A stretch of 64,000 bases of DNA. Origin: Mobula hypostoma (taxonomy: Eukaryota). The stretch spans positions 58,592,001 to 58,656,000 of the forward strand of contig NC_086108.1 in assembly GCF_963921235.1 (NCBI RefSeq). Direction: 5' to 3'. Positions 3,831 through 38,400 of the stretch are shown one piece after another (within the stretch, counting starts at the first letter, position 1; every line of letters begins with the position of its first letter). Below the pieces are notes generated by a model. It was given only the letters and a program-made list of their open reading frames with translations. It was not told the DNA's origin and searched no databases. A program made the position numbers and the translations under genes.

Positions 3831-4895
3831 AGTGTTCATTCAGAAATCTGGTGGTGGAGGAGAAGAAGCTGTTCCTGAAGTGTTGAGTGTGTGTCTTTGG
3901 GCTCCCGTACCTCCTCTGCGATGGTAACAATGAGAAGAGGACAATGCCCTGGGAGTCATCTTTTTGAGGCATCGCCTTTTGAAAGTGTTATGGATGCTCG
4001 TGAGACTAATGCCAATGATGGAGATGACTGAGTTTACAACTCTCTGCAGCTTTTTCTGGTCCTGTGCCCCTTCACACCAGATGGTGATGCAACCAGTCAC
4101 AATGCACTCCACAATATGTCTGTAGAAATTTGCAAGTGTCTTTGATGACACACCAATTCTCCTCAAATTCCTGATGAAATATAGCTTCTTTCATGCCTTC
4201 TCTGTAATTGCATCAATACATCAGGCTCAGGATAGATCCTCAGAGACGTTCATGCTCACCCTTTCCACTTCTGATCCCTCGACGAGTTCTGGTGTGTGCT
4301 CCATCAGCTTCCCCTTCCTGAAGTCCTCATGCAGTTCCTTGGTCTTACTGAGAAAGAGTGCAAGGTTGTTGCTGTTACACCACTCAGCCAACTCATCTAT
4401 CTCATTCCGTTTGAAATTCTGCCAACAACAGTTGTGTCACCGACAAATTTATAGATGGCTTTTGAGCTGTACCTATCCACACAATTGTGAGTGTAGAGAG
4501 AGTACAGCAGTGAGCTAAGCACGCATCCTTGAGGGCACCAGTGTTGATCGTCAGTGAGAAGGAGATGTTATTTTCTATGCACACAGACTTTGGTCTCCCA
4601 GTGAGGAAGTCAAGGATCTAGTTGCAGAGGGAGGTCCAGAGGTCCAGGTTTCCGGAGCTTATTGACTAGAACTGAGGAAATAATTGTGTTGAACGTTGAG
4701 TTGTAGTCAATTAACAGCAGTCTGACATTGTATTACTATTGTTCAAGCCAATAACTATGATACCATGTCCACAAGGGACAGGGAATTGTAGATCCAGTAT
4801 TATAAAAGGCAATATCAAAGGTTTAATTGAGAGCTGGTAGTAAAAAGAGAAGAACAATCATAGAATTTTATATCAAGAATTAAAGTGATTTAGTT

Positions 4896-5477
4896 CCATT
4901 GCGTTAATCTCTTTTTTAACCAGCAACGCCACCCCACCTCCCCTTCCTTCATGTCTATCCCTCCTGAATATTGAATATCCCTGAATGTTGAGCTCCCATC
5001 CCTGGTCACCCTGGAGCCATGTCTCTGTGATCCCAACTATATCATAATCATTAATAACAATCTGCACTTTCAATTCATCCACCTTATTCCGAATGCTCCT
5101 TGCATTGACACATAAAGCCTTCAGGCGCTCTTTTACAACTCTCTTAGCCCTTTTTAATGCTTGCCCTGGATTTGTCGGCCTGCCACTTTTACTTTTCCCC
5201 TTTGTACTTTTTGCTTCTACGCTCACTTTACACCCCTCTGTCTCTCTGCACTGGTTCCCATCCCTCTGTTGTGAACTAACCTCCTCACACCTAGCCTCTT
5301 TAATTTGATTCCCACCCCCCAACCATTCTAGTTTAAAGTCACCTCAGTAGCCCGCGCTAATCTCCCTGCCAGGATATTGGTCCCCCTAGGATTTAAGTGT
5401 AACCCGTCCTTTTTGTACAGGTCACGCCTGCACCAATAGAGGTCCCAATGATCCAAAAACTTGAATCCCTGCCCCCT
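4896..5477 (-). mobile_element. Inverted 5' segment of a young CR1 LINE: end of ORF1 (SGNH esterase) and start of ORF2 (APE endonuclease)
   Basis: GFKFLDHWDLY...DGLHLNPRGTNILAGRLARATEVTLN* is followed by LCVNARSIRNK...DIVGITETWL...GYSIFRRDR...GGGVALLVK. Confidence 0.92.
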
Positions 5478-5481
5478 AAAT

Positions 5482-7985
5482 AAAACGCTGGTGGGAGTTG
5501 TGTACAGGCCACCTAACAGTAGTAGTGAGGTCGGAGATGGTATTAAACAGGAAATTAGAAATGTGTGCAATAAAGGAACAGCAGTTATAATGGGTGACTT
5601 CAATCTACATGTAGACTGGGTGAACCAAATTGGTAAAGGTGCTGAGGAAGAGGATTTCTTGGAATGTATGCGGGATGGTTTTTTGAACCAACATGTCGAG
5701 GAACCGACAAGAGAGCAGGCTATTCTGGACTGGGTTTTGAGCAATGAGGAAGGGTTAATTAGCGATCTTGTCGTGAGAGGCCCCTTGGGTAAGAGTGACC
5801 ATAATATGGTGGAATTCTTCATTAACATGGAGAGTGACATAGTTAATTCAGAAACAAAGGTTCTGAACTTAAAGAGGGGTAACTTTGAAGGTATGAGTCG
5901 TGAATTAGCTAAGATAGACTGGCAAATGACACTTAAAGGATTGACGGTGGATATGCAATGGCAGGCATTTAAAGGTTGCATGGATGAACTACAACAATTG
6001 TTCATCCCAGTTTGGCAAAAGAATAAATCAAGGAAGGTAGTGCACCCGTGGCTGACAAGAGAAATTAGGGATAGTATCAATTCCAAAGAAGTAGCATACA
6101 AATTAGCCAGAGAAAGTGGCTCACCTGAGGACTGGGAGAAATTCAGAGTTCAGCAGAGGAGGACAAAGGGCTTAATTAGGAAGGGGAAAAAAGATTATGA
6201 GAGAAAACTGGCAGAGAACATAAAAACGGACTGTAAAAGCTTTTATAGATATGTAAAAAGGAAAAGACTGATAAAGACAAATGTAGGTCCCCTGCAGACA
6301 GAAACAGGTGAATTGATTATGGGGAGCAAGGACATGGCAGACCAATTGAATAATTACTTTGGTTCTGTCTTCACTAAGGAGGACATAAATAATCTTCCAG
6401 AAATAGTAAGGGACAGAGGGTCCAGTGAGATGGAGGAACTGAGTGAAATACATGTTAGTAGGGAAGTGGTGTTAGGTAAATTGAAGGGATTGAAGGCAGA
6501 TAAATCCCCAGGGCCAGATGCTCTGCATCCCAGAGTGCTTAAGGAAGTAGCCCAAGAAATAGTGGATGCATTAGTGATAATTTTTCAAAACTCGTTAGAT
6601 TCTGGACTAGTTCCTGAGGATTGGAGGGTGGCTAATGTAACCCCACTTTTTAAAAAAGGAGGGAGAGAGAAACCGGGGAATTATAGGCCGGTTAGCCTAA
6701 CGTCGGTGGTGGGGAAACTGCTGGAGTCAGTTATCAAGGATGTGATAACAGCACATTTGGAAAGCGGTGAAATGATCGGACAAAGTCAGCATGGATTTGT
6801 GAAAGGAAAATCATGTCTGACGAATCTCATAGAATTTTTTGAGGATGTAACTAGTAGAGTGGATAGGGGAGAACCAGTGGATGTGGTATATTTGGATTTT
6901 CAAAAGGCTTTTGACAAGGTCCCACACAGGAGATTAGTGTGCAAACTTAAAGCACACGGTATTGGGGGTAAGGTATTGGTGTGGGTGGAGAATTGGTTAG
7001 CAGACAGGAAGCAAAGAGTGGGAATAAACGGGACCTTTTCAGAATGGCAGGCGGTGACTAGTGGGGTACCGCAAGGCTCAGTGCTGGGACCCCAGTTGTT
7101 TACAATATATATTAATGACTTGGATGAGGGAATTAAATGCAGCATCTCCAAGTTTGCGGATGACACGAAGCTGGGTGGCAGTGTTAGCAGTGAGGAGGAT
7201 GCTAAGAGGATGCAGGGTGACTTGGATAGGTTGGGTGAGTGGGCAAACTCATGGCAGATGCAATTTAATGTGGATAAATGTGAAGTTATCCACTTTGGTG
7301 GCAAAAATAGGAAAACAGATTATTATCTGAATGGTGGCCGATTAGGAAAAGGGGAGGTGCAATGAGACCTGGGTGTCATTATACACCAGTCATTGAAAGT
7401 GGGCATGCAGGTACAGCAGGCGGTGAAAAAGGCGAACGGTATGCTGGCATTTATAGCGAGAGGATTCGAGTACAGGAGCAGGGAGGTACTACTGCAGTTG
7501 TACAAGGCCTTGGTGAGACCACACCTGGAGTATTGTGTGCAGTTTTGGTCCCCTAATCTGAGGAAAGACATCTTTGCCATAGAGGGAGTACAAAGAAGGT
7601 TCACCAGATTGATTCCTGGGATGGCAGGTCTTTCATATGAAGAAAGACTGGATGAACTGGGCTTGTACCGTTGGAATTTAGAAGATTGAGGGGGGATCTG
7701 ATTGAAACGTATAAGATCCTAAAGGGATTGGACGGGCTAGATGCGGGAAGATTGTTCCCGATGTTGGGGAGGTCCAGAACGAGGGGTCACAGTTTGAGGA
7801 TAGAGGGGAAGCCTTTTAGGACCGAGATTAGGAAAAACTTCTTCACACAGAGAGTGGTGAATCTGTGGAATTCTCTGCCACAGCAAACTGTTGAGGCCAG
7901 TTCATTGGCTATGTTTAAGAGGAAGTTAGATATGGCCCTTGTGGCTACAGGGGTCAGGGGGTATGGAGGGAAGGCTGGGTTCTGA
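5482..7985 (+). pseudogene. CR1 ORF2 (endonuclease-reverse transcriptase) with only two visible lesions
   Basis: Open from 5482 to 7362. TGA at 7363-7365 in the VQ*DLGV context (likely CGA>TGA). The same frame continues to a 1-bp frameshift near 7668, and the last part ends at 7985. Confidence 0.9.
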
Positions 7986-8076
7986 GTTGGATGATCAGCC
8001 ATGACCATAATAAATGGCGGTGCAGGCTCGAAGGGCCGAATGGCCTACTCCTGCACCTATTTTCTATGTTTCTATG
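5482..8076 (+). mobile_element. Young CR1 LINE, non-inverted segment: ORF2, 3' UTR and (tttctatg)2 tail
   Basis: Endonuclease motifs (VYRPP, MGDFN, SDHN), RT motifs (YRPVSLTS, LDFQKAFDKVPH, GVPQGSVLGP, FADD), and a CR1-type 8-bp terminal repeat at 8061-8076. Confidence 0.95.
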
Positions 8077-15190: not shown

Positions 15191-16351
15191 ATTGCTCAAT
15201 TGAACACAAAAAACACCAATTTTATTTATCCTTTATGGAACGTATTTTCAAAGTACAAGGAAAAAAAGATGAAAATATATTTCAAATTGTAGAGAAAAAA
15301 TCACAACAATGAAATATTAACATCAGATCAGCTAATTTTAAGGATGTATTAAACTGCAGATGCTGCATTTTATTGCTTGAGGTATATTGACAAACTTAAT
15401 GGTCCACTGGGACATAAATGGATTAGCTTGAATAGAATCAATTAATGTTGGAAAGGAAACACATATTTTTCCAGAACAGCCAGAAACATGATTAAAAAAA
15501 AGATTGTTCAGAAGGGTGGATCTCTGTTTAAATTATGACATGTAGAGAAACCTAGGGCTGTTTTTCCTAATAAACAATTCCCTTGACTGATACCTCCCCT
15601 TACCCATAATCAATCACATAGGTAGAATGCTGAAAAGCTAGACCTCCAGGATAGTAATCTCAGGATTGCTGCCTGTGCTACGCGCCAGTGAGAGTAAAAA
15701 TAGGATGATTTGGCAGATGAACATGTAGCTGTTGAAATGGTGCAGGGGAGAAGGTTTCAGATTTGAGGATCTTTGGGATCTCTTCTGGGGAAAAGAACAT
15801 GTTACTCCTGACCCTGAGGAGGACCAATATCCTGGTGGACAGGTTTGCTAGAGCTCCTGGGGAAGATTTAAACTGATTTGGCTGGGAGATGGCAACCGGA
15901 ATGATAGGGCTGAAGATGGGGCAGTTGGTATACAAGTAGAAGTGTAACATGGGAGCAAAATCAAAAAGCATGATTAATACAGGGATGAAGGTGTCATATT
16001 TTTAATGCATACGGTACATAGAAAAAGGTAGGTAATCTTGAAGAACAATTAGAGATGGGCAGGTGTGATGTCTGGGCATCACTGAGTTCTGGCTGAGGGA
16101 AAGCCATAGTTAGGAATTAAACATCCAAGGATACACCTTGTAACAAAAGGACAGGCAGGAAGGCAGAGGGAAGGGTTGGATCTGTTGGTAAAAGTTGAAA
16201 TCTAATCCTTAGAGGTGACAAAGAATCAGAAGATGTAGAAACCTTGCGGGTAGAGTTAAGAAACTGCAAGGGTAAAAAGACCTTGAAGGGAGTTGTATAC
16301 AGGCCACCTAGTAATAGCCAGGTTGTGGGATACAAACTAAAACAGGAGATA

Positions 16352-35410: not shown

Positions 35411-38400
35411 TCAAAGATTCAGTCTGTCAGGAGGCTTACGAGTGCACTGGGATCTGTGCACTACCCCCGGTGACCCAGCAGGCACCACTGGTGAGGGTGT
35501 TTTGGGTGGGTCTGGTGTTGGGGGTATGAGAGGGGTCTGTGTGTCTGTGTGAGAATGTCCATCCTCTTCAGGGGGCTCCTTTGGCAAAGTCACTGGTGGA
35601 CATGCTTCCACCATAGTCTGACTCACAAATGGAAACTCCATGGGACTGTCTGCCTCTGAGCCGGTATCATGACGCAGGCGCACATGGTCCTGATGTCTGC
35701 TGAAAACACGCCCATCAATCAACTTAACAACATAGGAGACGGGACCACTCTGCTTAAGAATAACCCCAGGCAGCCATTGCTGATTGTTTCTCACATAGAC
35801 ATTGTCATCTGGTTTTCACTGCCTCTCTCGCGCATGTTGATCATGTCCCTCCTTCTGCTTTCCCTGCTTTCTCTCCACTTCTCCCTTCATGTCTGGGCGC
35901 AGCATGTCCAATCTTGACTTGGGCCTACGCCCCATCAGCGTCTCTGCGGGAGTGCGGGCAGTCGTAGTCTGTGGTGTGAGGCGGTATTTAAACAGGAAAC
36001 GTGAAAGCCGAATGCTAAGGGAGTCCCCTGTCATCCGCTTCAGGCCTTCCTTCACCGTCTGAACAGCCGCTCAGCCAAACCAGTGGAGGCTGGGTGGAAA
36101 GGGGCCGTCCGAATGTGACGAATGCCATTCTGCTGCATGAACTCACTGAACAGCTCACTGGTGAACGTCGGGCCACTATCAGTGACCAGAGTGTCAGGCA
36201 GCCCGTGGACTGCAAACACTTGCCTGAGTTTGTCTATGGTTGAGGGGGCTGTGATGTTGCTCATGACGTGAGCTTCGATCCATTTAGAATGCGCATCTAC
36301 CATTACAAGAAACATCTGCCCCATAAAAGGGCCAAATCCAAATGTAGCCTAGACCTGGGGTGGTCTGGCCACTCCCATGGGTGCAAAGGAGCTGGCAGTG
36401 GCATATTCTGATTAGTCTGACATTGTGTGCATGATTTTACCTTGTTCTTCAGATCCTGATCCATTCTTGGCCACCAAACGTAGGCTCTTGCAAGGCTTTT
36501 CATTCGAGACACTCCTGGGTGAGCCTCATGAATTTCCTCCACAATCTGTGAACGGCCAGGGGAAGGCACGGTGACCCTCCCTCCCCAGAAAATGCAGCCA
36601 TCCTGCAGACTGAGTTCTGTCTTGCGTTTGACATAAGGCCTCAGTTCCTCTCCTTCCACGACTCTGGGCCAACCTTGTAAAAGAAAAGTCTTGACCTGGG
36701 ACAGGACTGGGTCCCTCTCTGTCCACTGCTCGATCTGGGTCGCCTTTACAGGTGTCTTTGACAGCCTCTCCAATGAAAACACAGTCTCTGGAGGCACATA
36801 TGTCGTATCAGGTGTCTCAGGTAAAGGTAGTTGACTCAGTGCATCAGCATTTGTATTATTCCCTCTCGCTCTGTACACTATAGTGTACTGGTAGACTGAC
36901 AACGTAAGAGCCCAACACTGTATCCTGGTTGAGGCTAGCAGTAGGATGCATCTAATCTCACTGAACAGGCTCATCAGTGGTTTATAGTCTGTATAAATTG
37001 TAAATACACGTCCATAAAGGTACTGATGAAAACATTTGACCACAAAAACAATGGCCAGACCTTCTTTGTCTAGCTGTGAGTATTCCTTCTCAGCAGCTGT
37101 CAGGGTATGTGAAGCAAAACCAATAGGCTTCGCTGATCAGTCCTCCATTACATGTGAGAGAACTGCCTCGACTCCATAGGGCGAGGCATCGCATGCAAGG
37201 GTGATCTCCTTGTCTGGGTCATAGTGAACGAGCAGCTTCGCTGAGTGGAGGAGTTCTTTCACATCCTTGAAAGCTTTCTTCTGCTCTTCATCCCACTGCC
37301 GCTTAGCGTCATTGTGAAGCAGCTTATACAGTGGGGTCAAAACCCCTGAGAGGTCAGGAAGAAACTTGCCATAATAATTCACCATGCCCAAAAATGATCT
37401 GAGTTCTGTGACAGTCCTAGGGCTTGGGGCTTCCTTAATAGCTCTCACTTTGTCCTCCACAGGGCAAAGCACCTCAGCTGTGATCTTGTGTCCCAGGTAA
37501 GTCACACGATGCCAGGAACACAGATTTTCTGTGTTTCAACCGCACCCCTGCGTCTGAAAGCCTCTTCAGCACCCGCTCTGCGTTAGCCAGATGCTCCACC
37601 TCCGTAGCCCTCGTGATCAAAATATCATCAAGGTACACTTCTACGTGTGGAATCCCCTGCAGCAAAGTGTCCATTGTCCTTTGGAAAATGGCAGGGCTGG
37701 ACGCCACTCCAAACACCAGGCGATTGTACTTCAATAATCCCTGTGCGTATTATTTGTGACGTACTCCTTTGAATCCTCGTCGAGCAGCAGCTGTTGGTAG
37801 GCATGGCTCATGTCCAGCTTTGTGAACAGCTTACCCCCTGACAGGGTCACAAACAAGTCATCCACCCGTGGCAATGGGTACTCCTCCAGCTCAGAGACCT
37901 GATTCACCGTAAGATTATAATCCCCACATATCCTCACCGTTTTGTCTGCCTTCAAAACTGGAACAATGGGAGCCGCCCATCTTGAAAACTGGACGGGCTC
38001 AATAATGCCCAGCCTCTGTAGACGTTCCAGCTCCTCCTCGACTTTGCCTTTCATGGCATAGGGCACCGACCTGGGCTTAAAAAAACGTGGTGTGGCCTCA
38101 GGGTTGACATGGAGTTTCACTGTCACGCCCTTCAGTGTTCCCAGCTCGTCCCTGAAAACGTCACTACACCACTGCAGAATGTCCTCCATCGTGTGTGCAG
38201 ACTTAATTTCATGCCAGTTTAGCTGGATTTTGCGAAGCCAATCGCAACCCAAAAGACTGGGCCCCCCGCCCTTAGCTATCATTAGTGGCTTCAGCTTTCT
38301 GACCCCTCGCTGCAATGTCCACATATAACACCCCTAAATGAGGTATAGGGTGTCCCGTATAGGTCCTAAGTTTGAGCTTTGACGGTCTAATGGGAGGCAG

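Follow-up and report, generated by a model that had tools for sequence, protein, structure and literature searches.

A candidate programmed −1 frameshift site at the ORF1–ORF2 junction of CR1-type LINEs with an esterase ORF1

The rearranged LINE copy and its family

The window, i.e., the whole 64-kb stretch of DNA that was analysed, contains a 5'-truncated, 5'-inverted, dead copy of a young CR1-type LINE family. In sharks and rays, reptiles and birds, CR1 is one of the major LINE families. Comparison with intact copies showed that a 5' piece carrying the end of ORF1 and the start of ORF2 (5477–4894) is inverted with respect to the rest of the element (5482–8076), that 66 nt of the element were lost at the inversion joint, and that most of ORF1 is absent; the window copy is therefore not expressible as one unit. 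The plus-strand remainder is 99.0% identical to an intact copy, with one stop and one frame change. The family is abundant, and all 40 copies scored out of 1639 candidates were 99–100% identical over the junction. The closest named relative of its ORF1 is from Mobula hypostoma (96% identity), which points to a ray-like host. The features are as follows.

4894–5106, minus strand: APE endonuclease, N-terminal portion with the motifs NARS and ITETW (Exo_endo_phos, 1.7e-05), cut at the insertion edge
5107–5337, minus strand: basic linker of 77 codons that connects the heptamer with the first endonuclease motif; read at −1 it has no stop, vs. 6 and 8 in the other frames
5311–5320, minus strand: G-motif GGGGGG-T-GGG, candidate stimulator, starting 10 nt past the heptamer
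5324–5326, minus strand: AUG 1 nt past the ORF1 stop in the wrong (+1) frame, opening 8 codons only
5328–5330, minus strand: ORF1 stop TAG, directly 3' of the heptamer (TAA in 5 of 17 lineages)
5331–5337, minus strand: candidate slippery heptamer U_UUA_AAC in ORF1 phase, assigned from the sequence and lineage conservation
5344–5346, minus strand: TGA that lies two codons before the heptamer and closes the frame of ORF2 (−1) in 30/30 copies of the family
5328–5477, minus strand: ORF1 3' remnant, the last 49 codons and stop, with the SGNH esterase end and its DGLH block (100% identical to the final 49 aa of an intact ORF1)
5478–5481, no strand: 5' inversion joint, with 4 extra bases and 66 nt of the element missing
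5482–7985, plus strand: remaining ORF2 (C-terminal half of the endonuclease, RT), with a stop at 7363–7365 and a frame change near 7656–7689 (99.0% to an intact copy)
7986–8076, plus strand: 3' UTR with a terminal stem-loop and a short tandem-repeat tail, without poly(A)

In the intact copies L206 and L207, ORF1 begins with Met and encodes 311 aa, and endonuclease and RT are both encoded in a −1 frame of 1004 codons. The intact ORF1 matches Pfam Lipase_GDSL_2 with 59.9 bits (cut-off 32.9; 5.7e-16), and a profile comparison with the ZfL2-1 ORF1 esterase 4C1B gave 1.9e-45. In L206, the 1004-aa frame matches Exo_endo_phos (91–277) and then RVT_1 (564–781; Pfam). An SGNH esterase as ORF1, an ORF2 with APE followed by RT, and a 3' stem-loop with a short tandem-repeat tail in place of poly(A) are the marks of a CR1-type LINE with an esterase ORF1. 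The vertebrate CR1 elements of this kind (CR1 subgroup 7, ORF1 type IVB, PMC4120745; ZfL2-1 esterase, PDB 4C1B) share with our element a zinc-finger-like N-terminus followed by an SGNH esterase, an APE-RT ORF2 and the repeat tail; a membrane-targeting function is proposed there for the esterase (PMC4120745). The label CR1 is used provisionally, on the basis of this architecture and of ORF1 relatives in turtles, lizards and birds rather than of an RT tree.

The window also holds two older, decayed CR1 copies of other families in which the junction is kept, at 15867–15876 (plus strand) and 57474–57465 (minus strand). They read GAT TTA AAC TGA and GGT TTA AGC TAA, the second with one changed base, and a G-rich stretch comes next in both. 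A long inverted repeat pair of about 2.1 kb, in two pieces that are 92–95% identical, lies at 38087–39662/45804–44212 and 35868–36395/46336–45804. Elsewhere, three identical junction-bearing copies (L028–L030; G000:C45, 45248347, 45251831 and 45255315) follow each other with an exact period of 3484 bp and are a tandem array containing CR1 sequence.

Sequence and conservation of the junction

Across the end of ORF1, the minus strand reads GAG GTG ACT TTA AAC TAG AAT GGT TGG GGG GTG GG. The original prediction described an ORF1 ending in ACU UUA AAC UAG with an in-phase U_UUA_AAC before the stop, a UGA 6 nt upstream of the heptamer in the −1 frame, an ORF2 in this frame that is open into the APE endonuclease, and a G-rich tract downstream of the heptamer. 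All four elements were recovered: TTTAAAC lies at 5337–5331 and TAG at 5330–5328, TGA lies at 5346–5344, the −1 frame reads FKLEWLGGG... and gives the Exo_endo_phos match, and the G-rich tract is present. ORF2, at −1, shares 10 nt with the end of ORF1. TTTAAAC occurs nine times on both strands of the window; base composition gives a probability of 0.002 for any X_XXY_YYZ at one particular place and of 5e-5 for TTTAAAC. In the whole 311-codon ORF1 of an intact copy, U_UUA_AAC is the sole in-phase canonical heptamer, and an X_XXY_YYZ in phase with the upstream ORF is a general property of −1 frameshift sites.

To describe conservation, 170 junction-bearing stretches (loci L001–L104, L120 and L141–L205) were grouped into 21 clusters on the upstream sequence only. 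Seventeen in-register lineages, i.e., nine ray, one amphibian-like and seven bird-like, were picked without using the site and labelled by the best named hit. Not counted among them were L001 (which duplicates family A), L093 (with an indel), L096 (27 codons; G_UUA_AAC) and a cluster made up of L097, L102, L103 and L120. Metagenome contigs were searched with the ORF1 alignment and had the junction in 11 of 43 loci (L091–L096, L098–L100, L104 and L120); L097, L102 and L103 end too early, and the remainder are cut or are unrelated esterases. The genome of the window itself was searched with five C-terminal stretches of ORF1 that end short of the junction site.

The codon before the Leu specifies seven different amino acids (T, G, A, H, C, S or D), yet it ends in T in 17/17 lineages. 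The Leu codon is TTA in 16 of the 17 lineages (ATA in one) and the Asn codon is AAC in 16 (AGC in one), both exceptions being single old copies; the invariant Leu of the catalytic block uses four codons in the same comparison. The ORF1 stop is TAG in 12 lineages and TAA in five. Parsimony on a tree built from real single copies gave 0, 0 and 0 changes for the heptamer's third-codon bases over the 17 lineages, and 2–10 changes each (median 5, sum 121) for the third positions of the 23 preceding codons; these counts are not independent draws since the lineages share ancestry. Free synonymous variation at the heptamer, which the original prediction had named as evidence against itself, was thus absent across the 17 lineages, and conservation at synonymous positions is a further general property of −1 frameshift sites. 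Within the older families, the exact site and stop are kept in 11/14, 18/30, 25/30, 19/25 and 20/24 copies, which fits their decay of 3–11%.

The end of ORF1 is also conserved at the protein level. Leu-Asn followed by the stop was found in 84 of the 120 homologues listed, with named examples in rays, sharks, coelacanth, frogs, turtles, a snake, lizards and a hummingbird, and most homologues with another end are truncated or frameshifted models. A residue whose codons are unable to end in U precedes Leu-Asn in only 2 of 112 distinct tails, vs. 17% at neighbouring positions (p 2e-7, a nominal value because the tails are related to one another). More distant relatives also gave the ends x-G-N (11), x-K-N (27, many from one cluster) and x-G-F (3); of 196 ends in all, 7 had FF or FL and 21 showed no heptamer pattern. 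Ends in Q/S/A-G-N, x-K-N and x-G-F are what G_GGA_AAC, A_AAA_AAC and G_GGU_UUU would encode; together with U_UUA_AAC, a 2016 review names these as the most shift-prone heptamers (PMC5009743). These possible heptamer swaps, seen at the protein level, stay a lead because no DNA was found for those groups; viral contigs and plasmids yielded none for the distant G-N and K-N groups. Examples of the Q-G-N end are P0109, P0119, P0169, P0170, P0182 and others; x-K-N stands at the same place in P0184, P0195, P0212 and others, and x-G-F in P0223, P0243 and P0267.

A constraint on the protein, either on the C-terminal Leu-Asn or on dual coding of F-K-L in the overlapping ORF2, might together with shared ancestry preserve the junction, and L310 and N311 are indeed among the most conserved ORF1 columns. 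Such a constraint is unable to fix synonymous bases, however, and the synonymous-site counts largely refute it. Dual coding is ruled out as the source of constraint by a stop that closes the −1 frame 1–5 codons before the heptamer in most lineages (17 codons before it in family F, 37 at two of the bird-like loci), and the distant esterase ORF1s end in other residues. We therefore consider protein constraint extremely unlikely as the explanation.

Some matches lie outside this comparison. The distant locus L096 has G_UUA_AAC-UAG followed by 833 open codons at −1, and its ORF2 is 36–38% identical to vertebrate elements. In run X18, on the loose ends L021:1619 and 1630, another organism gave one consensus (agreement 0.79, low) with A for the first U of the heptamer; a second related junction in this run keeps U_UUA_AAC-UAG. 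Viral contigs searched with the vertebrate ORF1 alignment gave no match, and prokaryote genome contigs gave seven weak ones (24–30% identity). P0022, with an ORF1 60% identical to the ray protein and an LN end, is filed under Pseudomonas aeruginosa on a 4-kb contig and is probably contamination. Twenty-two longer matches were considered as natural ORF1–ORF2 fused proteins; their Pfam lists look like gene-model chimeras, and they were not used as evidence.

ORF2 start codons and the region downstream of the heptamer

The claim that the ORF2 frame has no AUG until inside the endonuclease holds for the family, and the AUG at about codon 146 (4899–4897), where the original prediction let the AUG-free stretch end, turned out to be peculiar to the window copy: intact copies read ATA at this place, and the deviating G is among the final 4 bases of the inverted piece. 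The first in-frame AUG of the −1 frame is codon 206 in 25/30 family copies; of the other five, three stop early, one has an AUG at codon 71 and one is the window copy. Codon 206 belongs to the GTAVI-M-GDFN motif, with NARS and ITETW lying before it. Because the Pfam endonuclease match spans 91–277, an ORF2 protein started at this AUG would miss much of the endonuclease. Ray families A and B and the amphibian-like locus have no in-frame AUG ahead of the endonuclease, and in the linker frame of the amphibian-like locus CUG, GUG, ACG and UUG are absent as well. A conserved in-frame ORF2 AUG, the other observation named beforehand as contrary evidence, was not found across the lineages. In the window copy's family, the downstream ORF is open at −1 and has no start codon that it could use itself; a non-conserved linker AUG is common in other lineages.

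The linker spans 35–110 codons with 0 stops in the −1 frame vs. 1–12 in the other two, as counted in 14 best copies that were picked for an open frame. The distance from heptamer to endonuclease is in frame in 29/30, 12/14 and 21/28 copies of families A, B and D, in 12/27, 10/23 and 11/22 of the older families C, E and F, and in 9/12 single loci. In ray family E (L156–L180), 8/23 copies have a distance of 200 nt vs. the in-frame 216 nt. This shared out-of-frame length stems from a 16-nt deletion between short direct repeats and may mark a defective sublineage copied in trans, or recurrent deletion. The frequent loss of register in the older families counts against the frameshift reading, as do the linker AUGs of other lineages, the lack of a shared hairpin and the G_UUA_AAC of L096.

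The start codons bear on a second explanation, according to which ORF2 is made as a separate protein by termination-reinitiation in the style of L1 or SART1, perhaps without AUG, the conserved bases being the termination/reinitiation context. Reinitiation is the route described for other LINEs (PMC5009743, PMC3708506). Four of eight bird-like loci have an in-frame AUG at codon 4, 2 nt past the stop, some linker AUG occurs in 11 of the 14 best copies, and the G-motif is placed where a downstream coupling element could lie. On the other hand, reinitiation gives no reason for an exact in-phase X_XXY_YYZ or for the −1 register. The AUG positions in other lineages scatter (4, 9, 15, 18, 22, 26, 28 and 38), and the amphibian-like linker lacks even near-cognate starts. 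In the window copy's family, the AUG next to the stop is in the wrong frame, and the in-frame AUG at or near the ORF1 stop that is typical of SART1 and L1 is missing; among the bird-like loci it is confined to the four mentioned. We judge reinitiation improbable as the general route, and some bird lineages may make mixed use of frameshifting and reinitiation.

Past the heptamer, a motif of the form G4-5-NN-G3 has G at the 11th, 12th and 14th base in 16/16 lineages. The G-run starts 10 nt past the heptamer in 13/18 cases and 7–9 nt past it in 5/18. Two of the three invariant G positions fall on the third base of an ORF2 codon, at which G has a background frequency of 32%. This motif at a fixed distance is a new observation of the present analysis, and its conservation shows that the G-tract is more than incidental.

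The absence of a strong pseudoknot or hairpin noted in the original prediction was borne out, as no structure is common to 16 lineages and the window sequence has a folding z-score of 0.19 (ViennaRNA, with pseudoknots outside its model). Its suggestion of a weak hairpin or a G-quadruplex fared less well: there is no conserved downstream hairpin (z-scores from −2.8 to +1.0 across 16 lineages), and a two-tier quadruplex is predicted in only 4 of the 16. No Rfam match was found at the junction. The hairpin or pseudoknot 5–9 nt downstream that defines coronavirus- and retrovirus-type sites is thus lacking, and we do not file the junction in that class.

Pairing of the shift region with the element body or the 3' end was not conserved either. 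The cognate 3' end ranked 5/407 in family A and 54/396, 70/418 and 37/473 in families B, D and E, and non-cognate pairings score as well or better, so the long-distance interaction of the luteovirus type is not apparent. When L206, L207 and L209 were cofolded, the G-motif paired with the terminal repeat in a helix stacked onto the 3' stem, though in no families other than A and D; the gains of about 8 (A) and 3 (D) kcal/mol are weak and without covariation. What the junction does have is an unstructured motif at a fixed 10–11 nt from the slip site, the arterivirus-type arrangement.

A third explanation takes the conserved bases as a signal for RNA processing or transcription, i.e., an acceptor site for splicing, an internal TATA-like promoter with a GC/GT box, or a weak poly(A) signal giving rise to ORF1-only RNA. 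UUUAAA is a minor poly(A) hexamer and G-runs are hnRNP H/F or Sp1/KLF sites, both of which fit, and CUAG resembles an acceptor. A splice acceptor was rejected, as AG is absent in the 5/17 lineages with a TAA stop; a GT-AG joint at the junction was seen in 0 of the 15 joints listed (of 79), a weak comparison from four contig runs whose RNA status was guessed. Since a processing or promoter signal leaves the invariant C, the −1 register and the expression of an AUG-less ORF2 unexplained, we regard it as very unlikely.

Proposed translation and related systems

The junction is a real and deeply conserved feature. A conserved heptamer and stop, with ORF2 one base back and often without a start codon, indicate that the RT is likely made via −1 slippage. 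The esterase-ORF1/EN-RT fusion that had been predicted is supported by the conservation of the heptamer and the lack of a conserved AUG, and we are fairly confident, judging from the sequences, that the junction works as a programmed −1 frameshift site giving an ORF1-EN-RT fusion in CR1-type LINEs. On this model, translation would in the majority of cases end at UAG, so that the 311-aa esterase ORF1p is the main product. In a minority of cases the ribosome would instead move back by one base on U_UUA_AAC, with tRNA-Leu moving from UUA to UUU and tRNA-Asn from AAC to AAA. Reading would then resume with CUA GAA UGG to give ...EVTLN-LEWLGGG... and a minor fusion product of about 1313 aa (311 + 1002). 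The adjacent stop codon or the G-motif may add a ribosome pause. We infer slippage, the fusion product and the pausing role from phase, register, the open linker, the missing AUG and conservation.

Rous sarcoma virus offers a precedent for a stop directly behind the slip site. The 2016 review places U_UUA_AAC among the most shift-prone heptamers for mammalian ribosomes and names it as the IBV site (PMC5009743). The retroviral gag-pol and coronavirus (IBV) ORF1a/1b sites share with the CR1 junction the heptamer, the −1 register and the fusion of a structural-type gene to a polymerase gene. The CR1 junction differs from these viral sites in having no pseudoknot or hairpin 5–9 nt downstream and in its host, a non-LTR element. 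Among LINEs, the Dictyostelium elements TRE5-A and TRE3-A (L1-clade APE LINEs) are said in a review legend to need a −1 frameshift for ORF2 (PMC5911963); they belong to another clade and host and lack an esterase ORF1. L1 and SART1, in which ORF2 is translated by reinitiation (with UAAUG coupling), resemble the CR1 element in having a bicistronic LINE RNA with ORF2 close behind the ORF1 stop, whereas the CR1 junction has neither a stop-start overlap nor a conserved AUG and its ORFs overlap at −1.

With respect to the G-motif, the arterivirus (PRRSV) nsp2 frameshift is an analogue: it is stimulated by an nsp1beta-PCBP complex bound to CCCANCUCC 11 nt 3' of the shift site (PMC5009743). By analogy, the CR1 junction would share a short, unstructured run-gap-run motif at a fixed 10–11 nt from the slip site, in this case a G-rich one. 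The 2016 review lists G-quadruplex stimulators of frameshifting as anticipated but unknown (PMC5009743). One might go further and propose that esterase-ORF1 LINEs across animals use a new kind of −1 frameshifting, in which a slip site, an adjacent stop and an unstructured G4-5-NN-G3 10 nt downstream are read by a protein (a host binder of G-runs, or ORF1p with feedback), and in which distant relatives swapped among the most slippery heptamers. This wider proposal is speculative, and we hold it to be doubtful as a whole.

In the full-text literature searched (including PMC5009743, PMC5006619 and PMC5911963, as far as accessible), no description of frameshifting in CR1 was found; the original CR1 descriptions and Repbase notes were outside its reach, and an earlier remark on the overlap is possible. 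In the accessible text, the word 'frameshift' has 0 occurrences in PMC4120745, PMC3905857, PMC4316615, PMC8665684 and PMC3708506, and 'CR1' has 0 occurrences in PMC5009743. How ORF2 of two-ORF LINEs is translated is described as unclear (PMC3708506, PMC5009743).

With a slip site kept from cartilaginous fish to birds, the CR1 family would, if frameshifting is indeed used, follow the logic of Gag-Pol. The RT would be tethered to the esterase in a ratio set by slippage, the start of the CR1 ORF2 protein would be redefined, and the conserved G-motif would perhaps be a natural G-rich frameshift stimulator.
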